NCBI RefSeq assembly: GCF_057098645.1
Contig: NZ_CM169472.1
DNA: 64,000 bases
Direction: 5' to 3' (one strand)
Positions within the stretch are counted from its first letter, which is position 1. Each line of letters begins with the position of its first letter. The notes under the pieces were generated by a model. It did not search any database and was not told where the DNA came from. It saw only the letters and a program-made list of their open reading frames with translations. Position numbers and translations under genes: made by a program. This document shows, one piece after another, positions 1,930-45,231 of the stretch.

Positions 1930-4818
<2,889 letters not shown>

Positions 4819-16938: not shown

Positions 16939-17796
16939 ATGTCAATTAAAACAATTAAGTATTTCTCAACAATCATTGTAGCGATAGTTGCGGTTCTTGC
17001 CGGATGGTGGTTGTGGAATTATTACATGCAATCTCCGTGGACACGCGACGGGAAAATACGCGCAGAACAGGTTTCTATCACCCCACAGGTGTCGGGACGT
17101 ATTGTTGAGCTGAATATAAAAGACAACCAGCTGGTTAACGCAGGGGATCTTCTGCTCACGATCGATAAAACGCCCTTTCAGATCGCCGAGCTGAATGCAC
17201 AGGCTCAGCTGGCGAAAGCGCAATCTGACCTCGCAAAAGCCAATAACGAAGCGAATCGTCGTCGTCATCTCTCACAAAATTTTATTTCTGCCGAAGAACT
17301 CGATACCGCTAACCTCAATGTTAAAGCGATGCAGGCCAGTGTTAATGCCGCACAGGCGACGCTGAAACAGACACAATGGCAACTGGCGCAAACGGAAATT
17401 CGCGCCCCGGTGAGTGGATGGGTGACTAACCTCACTACCCGCATCGGCGATTACGCTGACACCGGGAAACCGCTTTTTGCCCTTGTCGACAGCCACTCGT
17501 TTTACGTCATTGGTTATTTTGAAGAAACCAAGTTGCGCCATATCCGCGAAGGTGCACCAGCACAAATTACCCTCTATAGTGATAACAAAACGTTACAGGG
17601 TCACGTTTCCAGTATCGGTCGGGCGATTTATGATCAGAGCGTTGAAAGTGACTCAAGCCTTATTCCGGATGTGAAACCTAACGTCCCCTGGGTTCGTCTC
17701 GCCCAACGCGTTCCCGTCCGCTTTGCGCTGGATAAAGTTCCAGGCGATGTCACGCTGGTGTCGGGCACCACCTGTAGCATTGCCGTAGGTCAATAA
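16939..17796 (+). CDS. ydhJ: HlyD-family membrane fusion protein YdhJ
   Basis: Start taken at MSIKTIKYF (ATG at 16939); coiled-coil periplasmic adaptor features. Confidence 0.85.
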
Positions 17797-19808
17797 TGAA
17801 CGCATCGTCATGGTCCTTGCGCAATTTGCCCTGGTTCAGGGCCACGCTGGCGCAATGGCGTTATGCGTTACGCAATACCATTGCCATGTGTCTGGCGCTG
17901 ACGGTTGCCTATTATTTGAATCTGGATGAACCCTATTGGGCGATGACCTCGGCTGCAGTGGTTAGCTTTCCCACCGTTGGCGGTGTCATCAGCAAAAGCC
18001 TCGGACGCATCGCTGGCAGTTTACTGGGAGCCATTGCGGCACTGCTTCTTGCCGGGCATACGCTCAATGAGCCGTGGTTTTTTCTATTGAGCATGTTGGC
18101 GTGGCTTGGCTTTTGTACCTGGGCCTGTGCGCACTTCACGAATAACGTCGCGTATGCATTTCAACTGGCGGGCTACACGGCTGCCATCATCGCCTTTCCG
18201 ATGGTTAATATTACTGAGGCCAGCCAGCTGTGGGATATCGCTCAGGCGCGCGTTTGCGAGGTGATTGTCGGTATTTTGTGCGGCGGCATGATGATGATGA
18301 TCCTGCCTAGCAGTTCCGATGCTACAGCCCTTTTAACCGCATTGAAAAACATGCACGCCCGATTACTGGAACATGCCAGTTTACTCTGGCAGCCTGAAAC
18401 AACCGATGCCATTCGTGCAGCACATGAAGGGGTGATTGGGCAGATACTGACCATGAATTTGCTGCGTATCCAGGCTTTCTGGAGCCACTATCGTTTTCGC
18501 CAGCAAAACGCGCGCCTTAATGCGCTACTCCACCAGCAATTACGTATGACCAGTGTCATCTCCAGCCTGCGACGTATGTTGCTCAACTGGCCCTCACCGC
18601 CAGGTGCCACGCGAGAAATTCTCGAACAGTTGCTGACGGCGCTCGCCAGTTCGCAAACAGATGTTTACACCGTCGCACGTATTATCGCCCCGCTACGCCC
18701 GACCAACGTCGCCGACTATCGGCACGTCGCCTTCTGGCAGCGACTACGTTATTTTTGCCGCCTTTATCTGCAAAGTAGTCAGGAATTACATCGTCTGCAA
18801 AGCGGTGTAGATGAACATGCCAGACTCCCACGGACATCCGGCCTGGCTCGTCATACCGATAACGCCGAAGCTATGTGGAGCGGGCTGCGTACATTTTGTA
18901 CGTTGATGATGATTGGCGCATGGAGTATTGCTTCGCAATGGGATGCCGGTGCCAATGCATTAACGCTGGCAGCAATTAGCTGCGTACTCTACTCCGCCGT
19001 CGCAGCACCGTTTAAGTCGTTGTCACTGCTGATGCGCACGCTGGTGTTACTTTCGCTATTCAGCTTTGTGGTCAAATTTGGTCTGATGGTCCAGATTAGC
19101 GATCTGTGGCAATTTTTACTGTTTCTCTTTCCACTGCTGGCGACAATGCAGCTTCTTAAATTGCAGATGCCAAAATTTGCCGCACTGTGGGGGCAACTGA
19201 TTGTTTTTATGGGTTCGTTTATCGCTGTCACTAATCCCCCGGTGTATGATTTTGCTGATTTTCTTAACGATAATCTGGCGAAAATCGTTGGCGTCGCGTT
19301 GGCGTGGTTAGCGTTCGCCATTCTGCGTCCAGGATCGGATGCTCGTAAAAGCCGCCGCCATATTCGCGCGCTGCGTCGGGATTTTGTCGATCAACTAAGC
19401 CGCCATCCAACACTGAGTGAAAGCGAATTTGAATCGCTCACTTATCATCACGTCAGTCAGTTGAGTAACAGCCAGGATGCGCTGGCTCGCCGTTGGTTAT
19501 TACGCTGGGGTGTAGTGCTGCTGAACTGTTCTCATGTTGTCTGGCAATTACGCGACTGGGAATCGCGTTCCGATCCGTTATCGCGAGTACGGGATAACTG
19601 TATTTCACTGTTGCGGGGAGTGATGAGTGAGCGTGGCGTTCAGCAAAAATCACTGGCGGCCACACTTGAAGAATTACAGCGGATTTGCGACAGCCTTGCC
19701 CGTCATCATCAACCTGCCGCCCGTGAGCTGGCGGCAATTGTCTGGCGGCTGTACTGCTCGCTTTCGCAACTTGAGCAAGCACCACCGCAAGGTACGCTGG
19801 CCTCTTAA
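17796..19808 (+). CDS. ydhK: Putative efflux transporter YdhK (fusaric-acid-resistance / aromatic acid exporter family)
   Basis: 670-aa membrane protein; start overlaps the ydhJ stop. Confidence 0.85.
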
Positions 19809-20330
19809 TTACTTAATTACACCACAGGCATAGCGTTCACCGCCACCGCCCAGCGGTTTAGGTTGATCGGACATATTATCGCCGCCAACGTGGACCATCA
19901 GCGCTTTGTCTTTGATTTCATCCAGTGATTTCAGACGAGGCGCGATGACGGCATCGGTAGCTTTGCCGTCATTATTGACGACCAGTGCAGGCAGATCGCC
20001 TAAATGCCCGGCACCTTCTGGCCCTTCATGTTTACCGGTATTTTGTGGATCAAGATGCCCGCCTGCGGATTCCGCGGCGCTGGCTTTGCCATCTTTGGTG
20101 GCTGGCTGGCAGCTTCCTTTGGCATGAATATGGAAGCCATGTTCACCGGGGGGTAATGCTTTCAGATCGGGCGAAAACTCCAGACCTTTATCGGTTTCAG
20201 TAATGGTGACGCTACCAATTGACTGCCCAACCCCTTGCGACGTGACGAGGTTCATCTCGACTTTTTCACTGGCAGCTTGTGCGCCGGTCGCAACAACCAG
20301 CGCCAGAATAGCCAGACTAAAACGTTTCAT
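19809..20330 (-). CDS. sodC: Periplasmic Cu,Zn superoxide dismutase
   Basis: Start taken at MKRFSLAIL (signal peptide); Cu/Zn-binding His-rich core. Confidence 0.92.
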   Translation of the reverse strand: MKRFSLAILALVVATGAQAASEKVEMNLVTSQGVGQSIGSVTITETDKGLEFSPDLKALPPGEHGFHIHAKGSCQPATKDGKASAAESAGGHLDPQNTGKHEGPEGAGHLGDLPALVVNNDGKATDAVIAPRLKSLDEIKDKALMVHVGGDNMSDQPKPLGGGGERYACGVIK

Positions 20331-20410
20331 AGGACCTCCGTTCATTGTGCATTCCTGAATAAGTGTAAACCAGTGACACATTTTTGAACGGCGGCTATTC
20401 CTAAAAGTGC

Positions 20411-21307
20411 TTACGGTACGTCGTAACCCAGTGCCGCTTTACGGATACGAAACCATTGTTGACGGGTCATTTTCAGTGTTTCTGCTTCGACAGCTGCCCG
20501 TACGCGCTCAATTTTACCTGAGCCGATAATTGGCAGCGGCTGCGATGGTAAACGTAATACCCAGGCGTAAACCACCTGTTCAATCGAGCCCGCGTTTAAC
20601 TCCTCTGCCACCACAGCCAGTTCATCACGCAGCGGCTGGAAATAATCATCATTAAACAGACGACCACCACCAAGGCAGGACCACGCCATCGGACGAACAC
20701 GCAGTTGTTGCAGTTGGTCGAGCGTGCCATCCAGCAGTAACGGCTGATGTACCGGGGATATTTCCACCTGATTAGTGGCAAGGGTAAACGGCAGACGTGA
20801 TTGCAACAGGGCAAATTGCGCAGGCGTAAAGTTCGATACGCCAAAATGACGCACTTTGCCGCTCTGATGCAGATGTTTGAACGCGTCCGCCACTTCATCG
20901 GCATCCATTAACGGGTCCGGGCGGTGGATTAACAGCAGATCCAGATGATCGGTCGCAAGATTAATTAGCGACTGTTCGGCGCTCTTAATGATGTGATCGC
21001 GGTCAGTGATGTAATGACCAATGACGTTTTCTTCACGCGCGGTCGTCGCGATACCGCATTTACTGACGATTTCCATCCGCTCACGCAGGTGAGGTGCCAG
21101 TTTCAGCGCCTCGCCAAACGCCGCTTCGCACTGATAGCCACCATAAATATCAGCATGGTCCACGGTGGTCACGCCGAGATCCAGATGCTCTTCAATAAAA
21201 CTGACCAGCTGGCGGGCGGACATGTTCCAGTCCATCAATCGCCAGTAGCCCATCACAAAACGGGAAAACTCCGGGCCTTGCGGCGCAATAGTAATACGCT
21301 GAACCAT
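20411..21307 (-). CDS. ydhF: Aldo-keto reductase family oxidoreductase YdhF
   Basis: 298 aa, recognised AKR-family sequence; conserved position. Confidence 0.88.
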   Translation of the reverse strand: MVQRITIAPQGPEFSRFVMGYWRLMDWNMSARQLVSFIEEHLDLGVTTVDHADIYGGYQCEAAFGEALKLAPHLRERMEIVSKCGIATTAREENVIGHYITDRDHIIKSAEQSLINLATDHLDLLLIHRPDPLMDADEVADAFKHLHQSGKVRHFGVSNFTPAQFALLQSRLPFTLATNQVEISPVHQPLLLDGTLDQLQQLRVRPMAWSCLGGGRLFNDDYFQPLRDELAVVAEELNAGSIEQVVYAWVLRLPSQPLPIIGSGKIERVRAAVEAETLKMTRQQWFRIRKAALGYDVP

Positions 21308-21355
21308 AATCGCTTCCTCTTATCAGATATGAGAGGAGTATACGCAAGATTAGGC

Positions 21356-21595
21356 TCAAAAGAGTGATGGTTGCTCCGGTTCGTCTGATGACGCTGGCTT
21401 ATTTGCACGTAATTTGCGCATTAATCGTTGCCGACAAAGGCGCAGCACCTCTTGTTTTTCGCCATCGCTCATTTTATTCCAGTTAAAACGCTCATCCCGA
21501 CTACGAAAACAGCCGCGACAAAACCCGCGTTCGTCAGACTGGCAAATTCCCCGGCACGGGCTCTGGACGGGAAAGAACTCTAATTGCTCCGCCAC
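21356..21595 (-). CDS. ydhL: DUF1289 Cys-rich small protein YdhL (79 aa, GTG start)
   Basis: The track ORF is an upstream extension; GTG at 21593-21595 gives the 79-aa form with CRGICQSDERGFCRGC. Confidence 0.75.
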   Translation of the reverse strand: MAEQLEFFPVQSPCRGICQSDERGFCRGCFRSRDERFNWNKMSDGEKQEVLRLCRQRLMRKLRANKPASSDEPEQPSLF

Positions 21596-21697
21596 TTCGC
21601 CCTCCTCAAATAAGATTATTACCATTATTGAAGCTGTTAATGCCCAAAGTAGCAACTTTGCTTGCACTAGACCGACTGGTCTACTACACTCCAACGC

Positions 21698-22297
21698 ATG
21701 AACAAACACACCGAACATGATACTCGCGAACATCTCCTGGCGACGGGCGAGCAACTTTGCCTGCAACGTGGATTCACCGGGATGGGGCTAAGCGAATTAC
21801 TAAAAACCGCTGAAGTGCCGAAAGGGTCCTTCTATCACTACTTTCGCTCTAAAGAAGCGTTTGGCGTAGCCATGCTTGAGCGCCATTACGCCGCATATCA
21901 CCAGCGACTGACTGAGTTGCTGCAATCCGGCGAAGGTAACTACCGCGACCGCATACTGGCTTATTACCAGCAAACACTGAACCAGTTTTGCCAACATGGA
22001 ACCATCAGTGGTTGCCTGACAGTAAAACTCTCTGCCGAAGTGTGCGATCTGTCAGAAGATATGCGTAGCGCGATGGATAAAGGCGCTCGCGGCGTGATCG
22101 CCCTGCTCTCGCAGGCTCTGGAAAATGGCCGTGATAGCCATTGTTTAACCTTTTGTGGCGAACCGCTGCAACAGGCACAAGTGCTTTACGCACTATGGCT
22201 GGGTGCGAATCTGCAGGCCAAAATTTCGCGCAATTCCGAGCCACTGGAAAACGCGCTGGCACATGTAAAAACCATTATTGCGACGCCTGCCGTTTAG
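21698..22297 (+). CDS. nemR: TetR-family electrophile-sensing repressor NemR
   Basis: 199 aa, TetR-type N-terminal HTH; directly upstream of nemA. Confidence 0.9.
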   Translation: MNKHTEHDTREHLLATGEQLCLQRGFTGMGLSELLKTAEVPKGSFYHYFRSKEAFGVAMLERHYAAYHQRLTELLQSGEGNYRDRILAYYQQTLNQFCQHGTISGCLTVKLSAEVCDLSEDMRSAMDKGARGVIALLSQALENGRDSHCLTFCGEPLQQAQVLYALWLGANLQAKISRNSEPLENALAHVKTIIATPAV

Positions 22298-22333
22298 CAG
22301 GCATTTTTTATCACCAGACGACCGGGAGCCTTT

Positions 22334-23431
22334 ATGTCATCTGAAAAACTGTATTCCCCACTGAAAGTGGGCGCAATAACTGCGGCAAACCGTATTTTTA
22401 TGGCACCGCTGACGCGTCTGCGCAGTATTGAACCGGGTGACATCCCTACCCCGTTGATGGCGGAATACTATCGCCAACGTGCCAGTGCCGGTTTGATTAT
22501 TAGCGAAGCCACGCAAATTTCTGCCCAGGCAAAAGGGTATGCTGGTGCACCTGGCATCCATAGTCCGGAACAAATTGCCGCATGGAAAAAAATTACCGCT
22601 GGCGTTCATGCTGAAAATGGTCATATGGCCGTACAGCTGTGGCACACCGGACGCATTTCTCACGCCAGCCTGCAACCTGGCGGTCAGGCACCGGTAGCGC
22701 CTTCAGCACTTAGCGCGGGAACACGTACTTCTCTGCGCGATGAAAATGGTCAGGCGATCCGTGTTGAAACATCCATGCCGCGTGCGCTTGAACTGGAAGA
22801 GATTCCAGGTATCGTCAATGATTTCCGTCAGGCCATTGCTAACGCGCGTGAAGCCGGTTTTGATCTGGTAGAGCTCCACTCTGCTCACGGTTATTTGCTG
22901 CATCAGTTCCTTTCCCCTTCTTCAAACCATCGTACCGATCAGTACGGCGGCAGCGTGGAAAATCGCGCACGTTTGGTACTGGAAGTGGTCGATGCCGGGA
23001 TTGAAGAATGGGGTGCCGATCGCATTGGCATTCGCGTTTCGCCAATCGGTACTTTCCAGAACACAGATAACGGCCCGAATGAAGAAGCCGATGCACTGTA
23101 TCTGATTGAACAACTGGGTAAACGCGGCATTGCTTATCTGCATATGTCAGAACCAGATTGGGCGGGAGGTGAACCGTATACTGATGCGTTCCGCGAAAAA
23201 GTACGCGCCCGTTTCCACGGTCCGATTATCGGCGCAGGTGCATACACGGTAGAAAAAGCCGAAACGCTGATTGGCAAAGGGTTAATTGATGCGGTGGCAT
23301 TTGGTCGTGACTGGATTGCGAACCCGGATCTGGTCGCCCGCTTGCAGCGCAAAGCTGAGCTTAACCCACAGCGTGCTGAAAGTTTCTATGGTGGCGGTGC
23401 GGAAGGCTACACTGATTACCCGACGTTGTAA
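22334..23431 (+). CDS. nemA: N-ethylmaleimide reductase (Old Yellow Enzyme family, FMN)
   Basis: 365 aa OYE-family sequence. Confidence 0.92.
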
Positions 23432-33515: not shown

Positions 33516-34541
33516 ATGGCAACAATAAAAGATGTAGCGAAACGAGCAAACGTTTCCACTACAACTGTGTCACACGTGATCAACAAAACACGTTTCGTCG
33601 CTGAAGAAACGCGCAACGCCGTGTGGGCAGCGATTAAAGAATTACACTACTCCCCTAGCGCGGTGGCGCGTAGCCTGAAGGTTAACCACACCAAGTCTAT
33701 CGGTTTGCTGGCGACCAGCAGCGAAGCGGCTTATTTTGCCGAGATCATTGAAGCAGTTGAAAAAAATTGCTTCCAGAAAGGTTACACCCTGATTCTGGGC
33801 AATGCGTGGAACAATCTTGAGAAACAGCGGGCTTATCTGTCGATGATGGCGCAAAAACGCGTCGATGGTCTGCTGGTGATGTGTTCTGAGTACCCAGAGC
33901 CGTTGCTGGCGATGCTGGAAGAGTATCGCCATATCCCAATGGTGGTGATGGACTGGGGTGAAGCAAAAGCTGACTTCACCGATGCGGTCATTGATAACGC
34001 GTTCGAAGGCGGCTACATGGCCGGGCGTTATCTGATTGAACGCGGTCACCGCGAAATCGGCGTTATACCCGGCCCGCTGGAACGTAACACTGGCGCAGGC
34101 CGCCTTGCCGGTTTTATGAAGGCGATGGAAGAAGCAATGATCAAGGTGCCGGAAAGCTGGATTGTGCAGGGTGACTTTGAACCTGAATCCGGTTATCGCG
34201 CCATGCAGCAAATCCTGTCGCAGCCGCATCGCCCTACTGCCGTCTTCTGTGGTGGCGATATCATGGCAATGGGCGCACTTTGTGCTGCTGATGAAATGGG
34301 GCTGCGCGTCCCGCAGGATGTTTCGCTGATCGGTTATGATAACGTGCGCAACGCCCGCTATTTTACGCCGGCGCTGACCACGATCCATCAGCCAAAAGAT
34401 TCGCTGGGTGAAACAGCGTTCAACATGCTGTTGGATCGTATCGTCAACAAACGTGAAGAACCGCAGTCCATTGAAGTGCATCCGCGCTTGATTGAACGCC
34501 GCTCCGTGGCTGACGGCCCGTTCCGCGACTATCGTCGTTAA
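33516..34541 (+). CDS. purR: Purine repressor PurR (LacI family)
   Basis: 341 aa, recognised PurR ([23 protein letters not shown]...). Confidence 0.95.
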
Positions 34542-42802: not shown

Positions 42803-44407
42803 ATGAAAAAAATTGCTATTGTGGGTGCCGGGCCTACGGGGATCTACACCTTATCCTCGCTTCTACAGCAACAAACTCCACTTTCTATTTCTATCTTCGA
42901 GCAGGCTGACGAGGCCGGTGTCGGGATGCCATACAGTGATGAGGAAAACTCAAAAATGATGCTGGCAAATATTGCCAGTATTGAAATACCGCCGATTTAT
43001 TGTACGTATCTCGAATGGCTACAAAAGCAAGAAGCCAGCCATCTCCAGCGTTATGGCGTTAAAAAAGAAACCTTGCACGATCGTCAGTTTTTACCGCGAA
43101 TTCTGCTGGGCGAATATTTCCGCGATCAATTTTTACGATTAGTAGACCAGGCACGAAAGCAAAAATTTGCAGTGGCTGTTTATGAATCATGCCAGGTTAC
43201 CGATCTGCAAATTACAAATGCTGGCGTCATGCTCGCTACAAATCAGGATTTACCCAGCGAGACGTTTGATTTAGCGGTGATTGCCACGGGTCACGTCTGG
43301 CCTGATGAAGAAGAAGCAATCCGAACGTATTTTCCCAGCCCGTGGTCAGGCCTGATGGAAGCAAAGGTCGATGCGTGTAACATGGGTATTATGGGAACAT
43401 CCTTGAGCGGACTGGATGCGGCAATGGCAGTGGCAATTCAGCATGGTTCGTTCATTGAAGATGATAAACAACACGTCGTTTTTCACCGCGATAACGCAAG
43501 TGAAAAGCTAAATATTACGTTAATGTCGCGCACGGGTATTTTACCCGAAGCCGATTTCTATTGCCCTATTCCCTACGAGCCCTTACACATCGTCACTGAT
43601 CAGGCATTAAATGCTGAGATTCAAAAAGGCGAATATGGCCTTTTGGATCGGGTATTTAGATTGATAGTAGAGGAAATCAAGTTTGCTGATCCAGACTGGA
43701 GCCAACGCATAGCCTTAGAGAGCCTGAATGTCGATTCCTTTGCTCAAGCCTGGTTTGCCGAGCGCAAACAACGCGACCCATTTGACTGGGCAGAAAAAAA
43801 TCTCCAGGAAGTCGAACGCAATAAACGAGAAAAACATACTGTTCCCTGGCGTTATGTCATTCTGCGCCTGCATGAAGCAGTACAGGAAATTGTTCCACAT
43901 CTGAATGAACACGACCATAAACGGTTCAGTAAAGGCCTTGCCCGGGTTTTCATCGATAATTATGCCGCAATCCCTTCAGAGTCTATTCGTCGGCTGCTGG
44001 CCTTACGTGAAGCGGGAATCATTCATATTCTCGCTCTCAGTGAAGACTACAAAATGGAAATTAACGAGTCGCGCACCGTCCTGAAAACGGAAGACAACAG
44101 CTACTCGTTTGACGTTTTTATTGATGCCCGCGGGCAGCGTCCGCTTAAAGTGAAAGATATTCCTTTCCCTGGACTACGCGAACAATTACAGAAAACAGGG
44201 GATGAAATCCCTGATGTTGGTGAAGATTATACGTTACAGCAACCCGAAGATATTCGTGGGCGCGTAGCGTTCGGCGCGTTGCCCTGGTTAATGCACGACC
44301 AGCCTTTCGTTCAGGGACTTACGGCATGTGCAGAAATTGGTGAGGCGATGGCTCGGGCGGTCGTAAAACCTGCATCCCTTGCTCGTCGGCGTCTTTCGTT
44401 TGATTAA
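42803..44407 (+). CDS. ydhS: FAD/NAD(P)-binding protein YdhS
   Basis: N-terminal Rossmann motif IAIVGAGPTG; 534 aa. Confidence 0.85.
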   Translation: MKKIAIVGAGPTGIYTLSSLLQQQTPLSISIFEQADEAGVGMPYSDEENSKMMLANIASIEIPPIYCTYLEWLQKQEASHLQRYGVKKETLHDRQFLPRILLGEYFRDQFLRLVDQARKQKFAVAVYESCQVTDLQITNAGVMLATNQDLPSETFDLAVIATGHVWPDEEEAIRTYFPSPWSGLMEAKVDACNMGIMGTSLSGLDAAMAVAIQHGSFIEDDKQHVVFHRDNASEKLNITLMSRTGILPEADFYCPIPYEPLHIVTDQALNAEIQKGEYGLLDRVFRLIVEEIKFADPDWSQRIALESLNVDSFAQAWFAERKQRDPFDWAEKNLQEVERNKREKHTVPWRYVILRLHEAVQEIVPHLNEHDHKRFSKGLARVFIDNYAAIPSESIRRLLALREAGIIHILALSEDYKMEINESRTVLKTEDNSYSFDVFIDARGQRPLKVKDIPFPGLREQLQKTGDEIPDVGEDYTLQQPEDIRGRVAFGALPWLMHDQPFVQGLTACAEIGEAMARAVVKPASLARRRLSFD

Positions 44408-44418
44408 AGGTAAAGCTA

Positions 44419-45231
44419 TCAGCACTCAACAAACTGATGCTGTTCATTAAGACGATAGCGGACTCCGGCTCGAATATTGTTTTCACCTTCAATGGCGACG
44501 GCGAAACGAACTCTTTCGCCGTCATGATATGCCAGTGCGGCGCTTCCTCCTGGCCCGAGAATAATTGAGTCGACCACGCCCGTGCTCACTACCGTTGAAT
44601 TTTCACCGCTGGCAATGATGTGTACATTGTCGCCGCTGTTGGCAATTCTGGCGTTTGCGCCAAAGCTGGCGATTTGCACCAGGTCACCATTACTAGCGAC
44701 ATGACATCGTTCACCCAATGTACAAACGCGTACTCGCATTCCGGTATTCGCAATCCGACTGCTATCTCCAGCGCTGCTTATCCGCGAAGAATTGCCGGTT
44801 ACAGCAACCCGTGCGCGCTCACCGGAGCTGCCAATGTGACTGTTAAAGCCGACACTTCCAATCCGCACGCTATAACCCATACTGGCAATTTGTGCAGCAT
44901 ACCCAGCGGTTGCGATTCTGGCGTTATCCTCACAACAGCCGATGCGAGCATGATCGTCGCTGCGGGCAAACTGACTGCAAAATGGTATCTCTCCGGGGTC
45001 TGTGGCCAGTTTTTGCATAGAGGAAACTTCCTGATGCGCGAAGTTTTCATCCGCCAGCCATTTTTTCCACGCATACTCAACCAGACTCTCCGCCCAGTCC
45101 GTATATCCTTCCTCAATCAGTGCATGATGAATATCGGCATAACTACCGCCGCGTGGGAAATGGCGCAGGAACCAGCGATACATCACCGCTCCGATACGCC
45201 ATTCTCGCAGGTCTGCTCGTGTAATGATCAT
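44419..45231 (-). CDS. ydhT: YdhT, uncharacterised protein with a 9-residue periodic repeat
   Basis: 270 aa; about 15 consecutive xxRIxxxGx nonamer units; first gene read into the ydhUXWV block. Confidence 0.82.
   Translation of the reverse strand: MIITRADLREWRIGAVMYRWFLRHFPRGGSYADIHHALIEEGYTDWAESLVEYAWKKWLADENFAHQEVSSMQKLATDPGEIPFCSQFARSDDHARIGCCEDNARIATAGYAAQIASMGYSVRIGSVGFNSHIGSSGERARVAVTGNSSRISSAGDSSRIANTGMRVRVCTLGERCHVASNGDLVQIASFGANARIANSGDNVHIIASGENSTVVSTGVVDSIILGPGGSAALAYHDGERVRFAVAIEGENNIRAGVRYRLNEQHQFVEC

Follow-up and report, generated by a model that had tools for sequence, protein, structure and literature searches.

The convergent genes ydhK and sodC, whose stop codons abut in a 64,000-nucleotide stretch of Escherichia coli DNA (contig NZ_CM169472.1 of assembly GCF_057098645.1; the whole stretch is called the window below), very probably form an ordinary convergent junction devoid of a terminator, at which read-through transcription is ended mainly by Rho inside the partner gene. 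With similar confidence, the zero gap itself can be regarded as a compact and stable end state that needs no spacer, and not as a device. The assignment of the window to E. coli follows from 100% identity over 1101 nt to O145:H28 RM12761, with five mismatches in the first 30 kb. YdhK is the FUSC-family inner-membrane component of the YdhIJK efflux pump and is encoded by the last gene of the ydhIJK operon (annotation; PMC6401476). The two genes and their ends are positioned as follows.

17796..19808, plus strand: ydhK coding sequence, 670 aa (open reading frame list, RefSeq annotation)
19806..19808, plus strand: ydhK stop codon TAA (sequence, open reading frame list)
19809..20330, minus strand: sodC coding sequence, 173 aa, periplasmic Cu,Zn superoxide dismutase (open reading frame list, RefSeq annotation)
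19809..19811, minus strand: sodC stop codon TAA (TTA on the plus strand), directly abutting the ydhK stop (sequence, open reading frame list)

The letters of the window at 19800-19820 are gcc TCT TAA / TTA CTT AAT TAC, with zero intergenic bases between the stops. The reading frames touch without overlap, and the two coding sequences share no nucleotides in the window (gap 0). An earlier note on this DNA had reported the zero-base abutment, and it is confirmed by the sequence, by the open reading frames and by the annotation of both MG1655 and RM12761. RefSeq places ydhK of MG1655 at 1722121..1724133 (+) and sodC at 1724134..1724655 (-), positions that are converted to window coordinates by an offset of 1704325, and RM12761 is annotated alike; the zero-gap junction is already present in the reference annotation. 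That the abutment is an annotation artefact, one stop or frame being misassigned and a true spacer existing, is so improbable that it hardly needs weighing. It can be raised only as a general possibility, to which the variability of the YdhK tail past its GTL motif lends some colour, whereas both open reading frames are unambiguous and the RefSeq and K-12 annotations concur. The relatives speak against it as well: SodC ends in ...RYACGVIK in nearly all of them, and in all of them YdhK keeps a conserved C-terminal motif followed by a variable tail of 2-13 residues before the stop, the end of this tail being located at, beside or within the end of sodC.

The earlier note had also claimed that the two transcripts must overlap, and this is borne out by published data. 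Because the stop codons touch, it is impossible for both intact mRNAs to end ahead of the other gene, and overlap of the ydhK and sodC 3′ ends is already documented for this pair: ydhK-sodC is found among the 165 convergent excludons of MG1655 (Table 1; ExcludonFinder, Sanmartin et al. 2025 NAR, PMC12288877), which were defined by transcript overlap in at least 50% of 58 RNA-sequencing sets. In wild-type total RNA, the sense/antisense reads per million are 17.7/21.0 for ydhK and 66.4/1.5 for sodC, compared with 17.2/1.4 for ydhJ and 84.7/2.3 for ydhF (Huang et al. 2020, PMC7373196, Table S1c), ydhK being among the few genes in the region with antisense RNA as high as sense RNA. At 127 vs 8.8 reads per kb, sodC is covered about 14 times as densely as ydhK in the sense orientation, and in the last ~165-200 nt of ydhK the sodC read-through is expected to exceed ydhK sense RNA by roughly this factor. 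When the 21 antisense reads are divided by the sodC density (127 per kb), a read-through of ~165 nt results, close to the Rho position ~197 nt inside ydhK that is described below, although the estimate is rough because a p19-captured duplex shows that part of the ydhK antisense RNA arises elsewhere. This RNase III-type duplex of 22 nt lies within ydhK at U00096.2 1720972-1720996 (window ~18625), ~1,183 nt upstream of the stop; the p19-captured double-stranded RNA is moderate, at 43-103 reads per million on ydhK and 8-57 on sodC (PMC7373196). Antisense density over sodC amounts to about one-third of the ydhK sense density and to ~2% of sodC sense.

The evidence for Rho comes from DirectRNA-seq in the presence and absence of bicyclomycin, in which a Rho region at MG1655 1723937 (-) was classed as antisense to ydhK (Adams et al. 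2021, PMC7815308, supplementary file 2). Coverage upstream/downstream of this region is 74/14 without bicyclomycin and 29/28 with it, corresponding to a Rho score of 5.1 (p 2.8e-5), and by this published coverage the 3′ end of sodC shows the bicyclomycin sensitivity of a Rho-dependent terminator (PMC7815308). The only plus-strand Rho region listed here is found inside ydhK, not downstream of its stop; at this site, 1723528 (+), the coverage is 54/20 without and 382/449 with bicyclomycin, and the Rho score is 3.2 (PMC7815308).

19612, minus strand: highest Rho score of the sodC read-through (MG1655 1723937), ~197 nt past the sodC stop, within ydhK
19551..19688, minus strand: C-rich, G-poor stretch resembling a Rho utilization (rut) site, in the sodC read-through RNA from +121 to +258, antisense to the 3′ coding region of ydhK
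19203, plus strand: Rho region internal to ydhK (MG1655 1723528), 605 nt ahead of the ydhK stop

Rho loading sites are typically marked by a C-rich, G-poor composition. The stretch at 19551..19688 has a C content of 0.33-0.35 and a G content of 0.18-0.19, which corresponds to the 98th percentile of 78-nt windows, and an equivalent C>G stretch is present at +100 to +300 in 80 of 80 orthologous loci. Judged by composition, it would be consistent with, but not diagnostic of, a Rho loading site. Just over half of the Rho regions (51.5%) lie antisense to a gene (Adams et al. 2021, PMC7815308), and several neighbours in the window region behave alike in the Rho table, namely slyB reading into slyA, grxD into lhr and mdtK into ydhQ (PMC7815308). 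As for the other strand, ydhK reads rise ~7-fold on Rho inhibition, from 54 to 382 (PMC7815308). The data suggest that ydhIJK is substantially silenced by Rho in exponential lysogeny broth (LB) cultures; given the Rho region inside ydhK, much ydhIJK transcription would never reach sodC under these conditions.

The most probable course of events would then be the following. With no intergenic terminator, each RNA polymerase would continue beyond the stop codon and transcribe the partner gene in antisense, and the read-through RNA, once untranslated, would be ended mainly by Rho. On the sodC side this is documented: transcription extends by ~165-200 nt into the end of ydhK and ceases in the bicyclomycin-sensitive region next to the C-rich, G-poor stretch. 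Transcription of ydhIJK, according to the published coverage and read counts, is weak and already partly Rho-terminated ~600 nt ahead of the ydhK stop, with little antisense RNA over sodC; those ydhK transcripts that remain would presumably reach their ends within sodC, whether through Rho, weak hairpins or a collision with sodC polymerases. The two mRNAs thus share complementary 3′ ends, as is the case in ~75% of convergent E. coli operons (276 of 370, with a mean 3′ overlap of 286 nt; Conway et al. 2014 mBio, PMC4161252).

The statement of the earlier note that there is no room for independent terminators is right as far as the intergenic space is concerned and fails for termination as such, which on the sodC side takes place, through Rho, inside the coding sequence of the partner. 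No GC-rich hairpin with a U-tract is present between the stops, there being zero intergenic bases, and a scan for intrinsic terminators near the junction returned 9 sites against 7.3 expected by chance, none of them convincing. Furthermore, a scan of 17000-22500 against Rfam at E <= 1 gave no match, and hence no known small RNA or element. Intrinsic terminators could nevertheless be embedded, their hairpin and U-tract being hidden in the coding sequence of the partner, and for ydhK two such candidates are found.

19944..19973, plus strand: 10-bp hairpin, weak U tail AUUGACGA, in the ydhK read-through RNA from +136 to +165; candidate weak terminator
20077..20113, plus strand: second hairpin (ΔG -18.9 kcal/mol), tail UUCCUUUG, in the ydhK read-through RNA from +269 to +305; candidate

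That embedded terminators of this kind end the two transcripts is nonetheless quite unlikely. The two hairpins are accompanied by a fold of the region 19780-19990 that is better than that of shuffled sequence (z = -4.4), early termination would fit the scarcity of antisense reads over sodC, and, at the level of the class, TransTermHP predicts embedded terminators for 146 of the 165 E. coli convergent excludons (PMC12288877). Both hairpins, however, have poor U-tracts and are found only in E. coli and its close relative Escherichia sp. E1V33, being gone in E. whittamii and in every other genus compared, and the curated Term-seq data from three conditions contain no 3′ end at MG1655 1723500-1724699, so none at either hairpin (PMC7815308). 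On the sodC side, the only hairpin/U-tract candidate is weak (ΔG -10, tail UAAUUCUU), and the sodC read-through is sensitive to bicyclomycin. Both ydhK-side hairpins are by-products of local codon choice and not conserved elements, though they may still contribute to termination in E. coli.

Several points weigh against termination of the read-through mainly by Rho and against the view that the zero gap is a mere end state. Rho regions were defined by 800-nt windows, which makes the position +197 approximate, and of 300-nt stretches drawn at random from the window, 24% contain a C>G stretch as strong as the one seen here. The ends of the ydhK transcripts inside sodC are inferred, sodC being the side for which Rho is documented, and the p19-captured duplex deep within ydhK implies either an additional antisense transcript or a very long sodC read-through. 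All RNA data come from K-12 under few laboratory conditions, and both genes are lowly expressed. Finally, the family-wide absence of spacers longer than 14 nt could reflect selection for overlap.

This absence became evident from a comparison of 80 species-level Enterobacteriaceae loci, which were retrieved with a SodC query and in each of which both stops were located. The convergent neighbour of sodC is always ydhK, and no lineage has acquired a real spacer, the maximum among these 80 loci being 14 nt. The stop-to-stop distance is 0 in 25 loci (Escherichia, Citrobacter, Superficieibacter), -8 nt in 19 (Kosakonia, Pseudocitrobacter, Franconibacter), -22 nt in 26 (Enterobacter, Lelliottia, Leclercia) and -25 nt in two (Salmonella); the remaining distances are -11 nt (three loci), -4 nt (one), +1 nt (three) and +14 nt (one). 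The gap is thus zero or negative in 76 of the 80 species loci, and the coding sequences overlap by 4-25 nt in 51. Within E. coli, a 90-nt junction was matched at a coverage of at least 80% in 5,421 of 5,426 complete genomes. It is clear that the junction is stable and not a chance oddity, and that the exact stop positions drift between genera and, owing to an 8-mer repeat, also within E. coli. Where no intergenic signal is needed, deletion bias would leave a spacer of zero length, so that the conservation of "no spacer" needs no selective explanation.

Two side observations were made on the same loci. The overlap of 22-25 nt in the 26 Enterobacter, Lelliottia and Leclercia loci and the two Salmonella loci is dual-coding, the YdhK tail (...DQITPQA* or ...GYLxTPQA*) being antisense to the last 6-8 sodC codons, and SodC of the -22 group lacks the final Lys. 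At four loci (L011, L019, L028 and L081), belonging to species or metagenome-assembled genomes, ydhK is seemingly truncated or frameshifted (open reading frames of 67-440 codons); an assembly error is possible, and these loci fit earlier reports that ydhIJK was lost repeatedly in Enterobacteriaceae.

The variation within E. coli is due to a short repeat that contains both stop codons.

19804..19819: tandem 8-mer CTTAATTA, two copies, with both stops in the repeat (Tandem Repeats Finder, pattern search)

Copy 1 reads C-T-(TAA)-(TTA) and holds both stops, and copy 2 codes for the last sodC codons. The copy number n of CTTAATTA varies from 2 to 6 in E. coli, the gap being 8(n-2) nt, which yields natural AT-rich spacer alleles of 0, 8, 16, 24 and 32 nt that leave the YdhK and SodC proteins unaltered. 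With its head-to-tail copies in strain-variable number, the element is a variable-number tandem repeat. The 2-copy, zero-gap allele is present in ~5,345 of 5,425 complete E. coli genomes (~98.5%) and the expanded allele of 3-6 copies in ~77-79 of 5,425 (1.4%). Three copies (8-nt gap) were read directly in MCJCHV-1, four (16 nt) in SCU-387 and six (32 nt) in AHB7, and five were inferred for FDAARGOS_1252 from a matched span of 113 nt; in the fetched loci, the expanded repeats are located at 2969-3016 (L084), 345-368 (L085) and 345-376 (L086). The YdhK and SodC protein accessions of MCJCHV-1, SCU-387 and AHB7 are identical, which points to one lineage. The common 2-copy allele is the smallest viable one because a single copy would remove the sodC stop. 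For the origin of the E. coli zero gap, an 8-bp duplication of the -8 overlap seen in Kosakonia/Phytobacter was considered and rejected: one copy removes the sodC stop, and Citrobacter has its zero gap without the repeat. Indeed, across the 80-locus comparison the 8-mer repeat is absent from other zero-gap genera such as Citrobacter. That insertions are tolerated at the junction argues against a need for exact abutment.

Such tolerance bears on the question whether the pair is a functional convergent excludon, in which the absence of a spacer would be kept so that sodC, active in stationary phase under sigma-S, represses ydhIJK or vice versa, with polymerase collision or RNase III cleavage of the 3′ duplex leading to mutually exclusive expression. 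Antisense interference as such is plausible and would mainly affect ydhK, with sodC as its source. The overlap is documented (excludome, Rho region, antisense reads), the tight junction is kept in 80 species, antisense RNA over ydhK as a whole equals sense RNA (21.0 vs 17.7) under a sodC density ~14 times that of ydhK sense, p19 captures 43-103 reads per million of double-stranded RNA on ydhK, and synteny is higher among excludon pairs as a class. The two genes are also under different control: sodC depends on sigma-S according to the literature, and ydhIJK, an operon for fusaric-acid efflux, is repressed by SlyA, derepressed by salicylate and induced by sigma-E as well (SlyA-operon function: PMC6401476). 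A functional excludon is nevertheless unlikely. Published data yielded no pair-specific evidence of reciprocal expression, and according to the excludome paper it was not feasible to validate convergent excludons by p19 (PMC12288877). In the rnc-14 and rnc-38 mutants, ydhK sense reads fall and do not rise, and the antisense/sense ratio stays near 1.2 (PMC7373196); with no rise of ydhK sense RNA in either rnc mutant and the sole listed duplex 1.18 kb from the junction, there is no clear sign of an effect of RNase III on the junction overlap. Synonymous sites in the overlap zone show no excess conservation: their variability over the last 70 ydhK codons is 0.71-0.80 against a gene mean of 0.73, giving no signal, and the slight dip over the last 50 sodC codons (0.62-0.67 vs 0.73) is matched by its first 25 codons, which are just as low. 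The natural insertions of 8-32 nt argue in the same direction, and since three-quarters of convergent operons overlap anyway, overlap alone implies no function.

A more specific proposal, that the sodC read-through RNA is a conserved silencer of the SlyA-controlled YdhIJK aromatic-carboxylate pump under sigma-S in stationary phase, is very unlikely. If true, it would explain why no Enterobacteriaceae lineage gained a spacer or terminator between the genes, and the 8-mer repeat would be a natural tuning knob.

As an ordinary junction with Rho-ended read-through, ydhK/sodC has little significance beyond housekeeping, the junction, the overlap and the Rho-dependent sodC end having all been published already. 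It illustrates neatly how E. coli genes can go without intergenic terminators, which are dispensable because Rho stops untranslated read-through inside the neighbour. The present analysis makes two small additions, of possible use for the study of excludons or for strain typing, namely that the spacer-less junction is kept across Enterobacteriaceae and that the variable-number 8-bp repeat provides natural spacer alleles.

Bidirectional intrinsic terminators between convergent genes, reportedly described by Ju and colleagues in 2019, perform the same task of ending two converging transcripts, but they need an intergenic hairpin of 30-50 nt, as at lhr/grxD and mdtK/ydhQ, and there is none at ydhK/sodC. 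The pair is closer to the published cases of Rho termination inside a neighbour (PMC7815308; Peters et al. 2012 as cited there), with which it shares an antisense, bicyclomycin-sensitive drop ~200 nt past the stop, the adjoining C>G stretch and the lack of a hairpin with U-tract; it differs in that only the sodC side is documented, the ydhK-strand Rho region being intragenic. With the convergent excludons (PMC4161252, PMC12288877) it has in common adjacent convergent genes, a very short gap and complementary 3′ transcript ends, whereas that concept further entails expression in mutual exclusion and processing by RNase III, and the criterion by which ydhK/sodC was placed there is transcript overlap. 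The pairs dnaQ-rnh and ilvA-ilvY (cited in PMC4161252) as well as purR-punR are likewise arranged tail to tail without a spacer; in contrast to them, the E. coli ydhK and sodC frames touch without overlap, the 4-25 nt overlap being found in 51 of the 80 orthologous loci.

In its own neighbourhood, ydhK/sodC does not stand out for tightness. Nine convergent junctions lie within the first 50 kb of the window, with gaps of -4, 0, 11, 39, 40, 43, 45, 50 and 145 nt, and in three of the nine the gap is 11 nt or less. Strong hairpins occur within larger gaps, those of lhr/grxD, sodB/ydhP and mdtK/ydhQ, among the junctions of 40-145 nt. The stops of purR (+) and punR (-) share TTAA at 34538-34541, a 4-nt overlap and thus tighter than ydhK/sodC, and ydhS (+) and ydhT (-) are 11 nt apart (44407-44419), forming a third convergent junction in the window that is free of a terminator. 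These three pairs, purR/punR, ydhK/sodC and ydhS/ydhT, are exactly the ones from the window region that appear in the MG1655 list of convergent excludons (PMC12288877).

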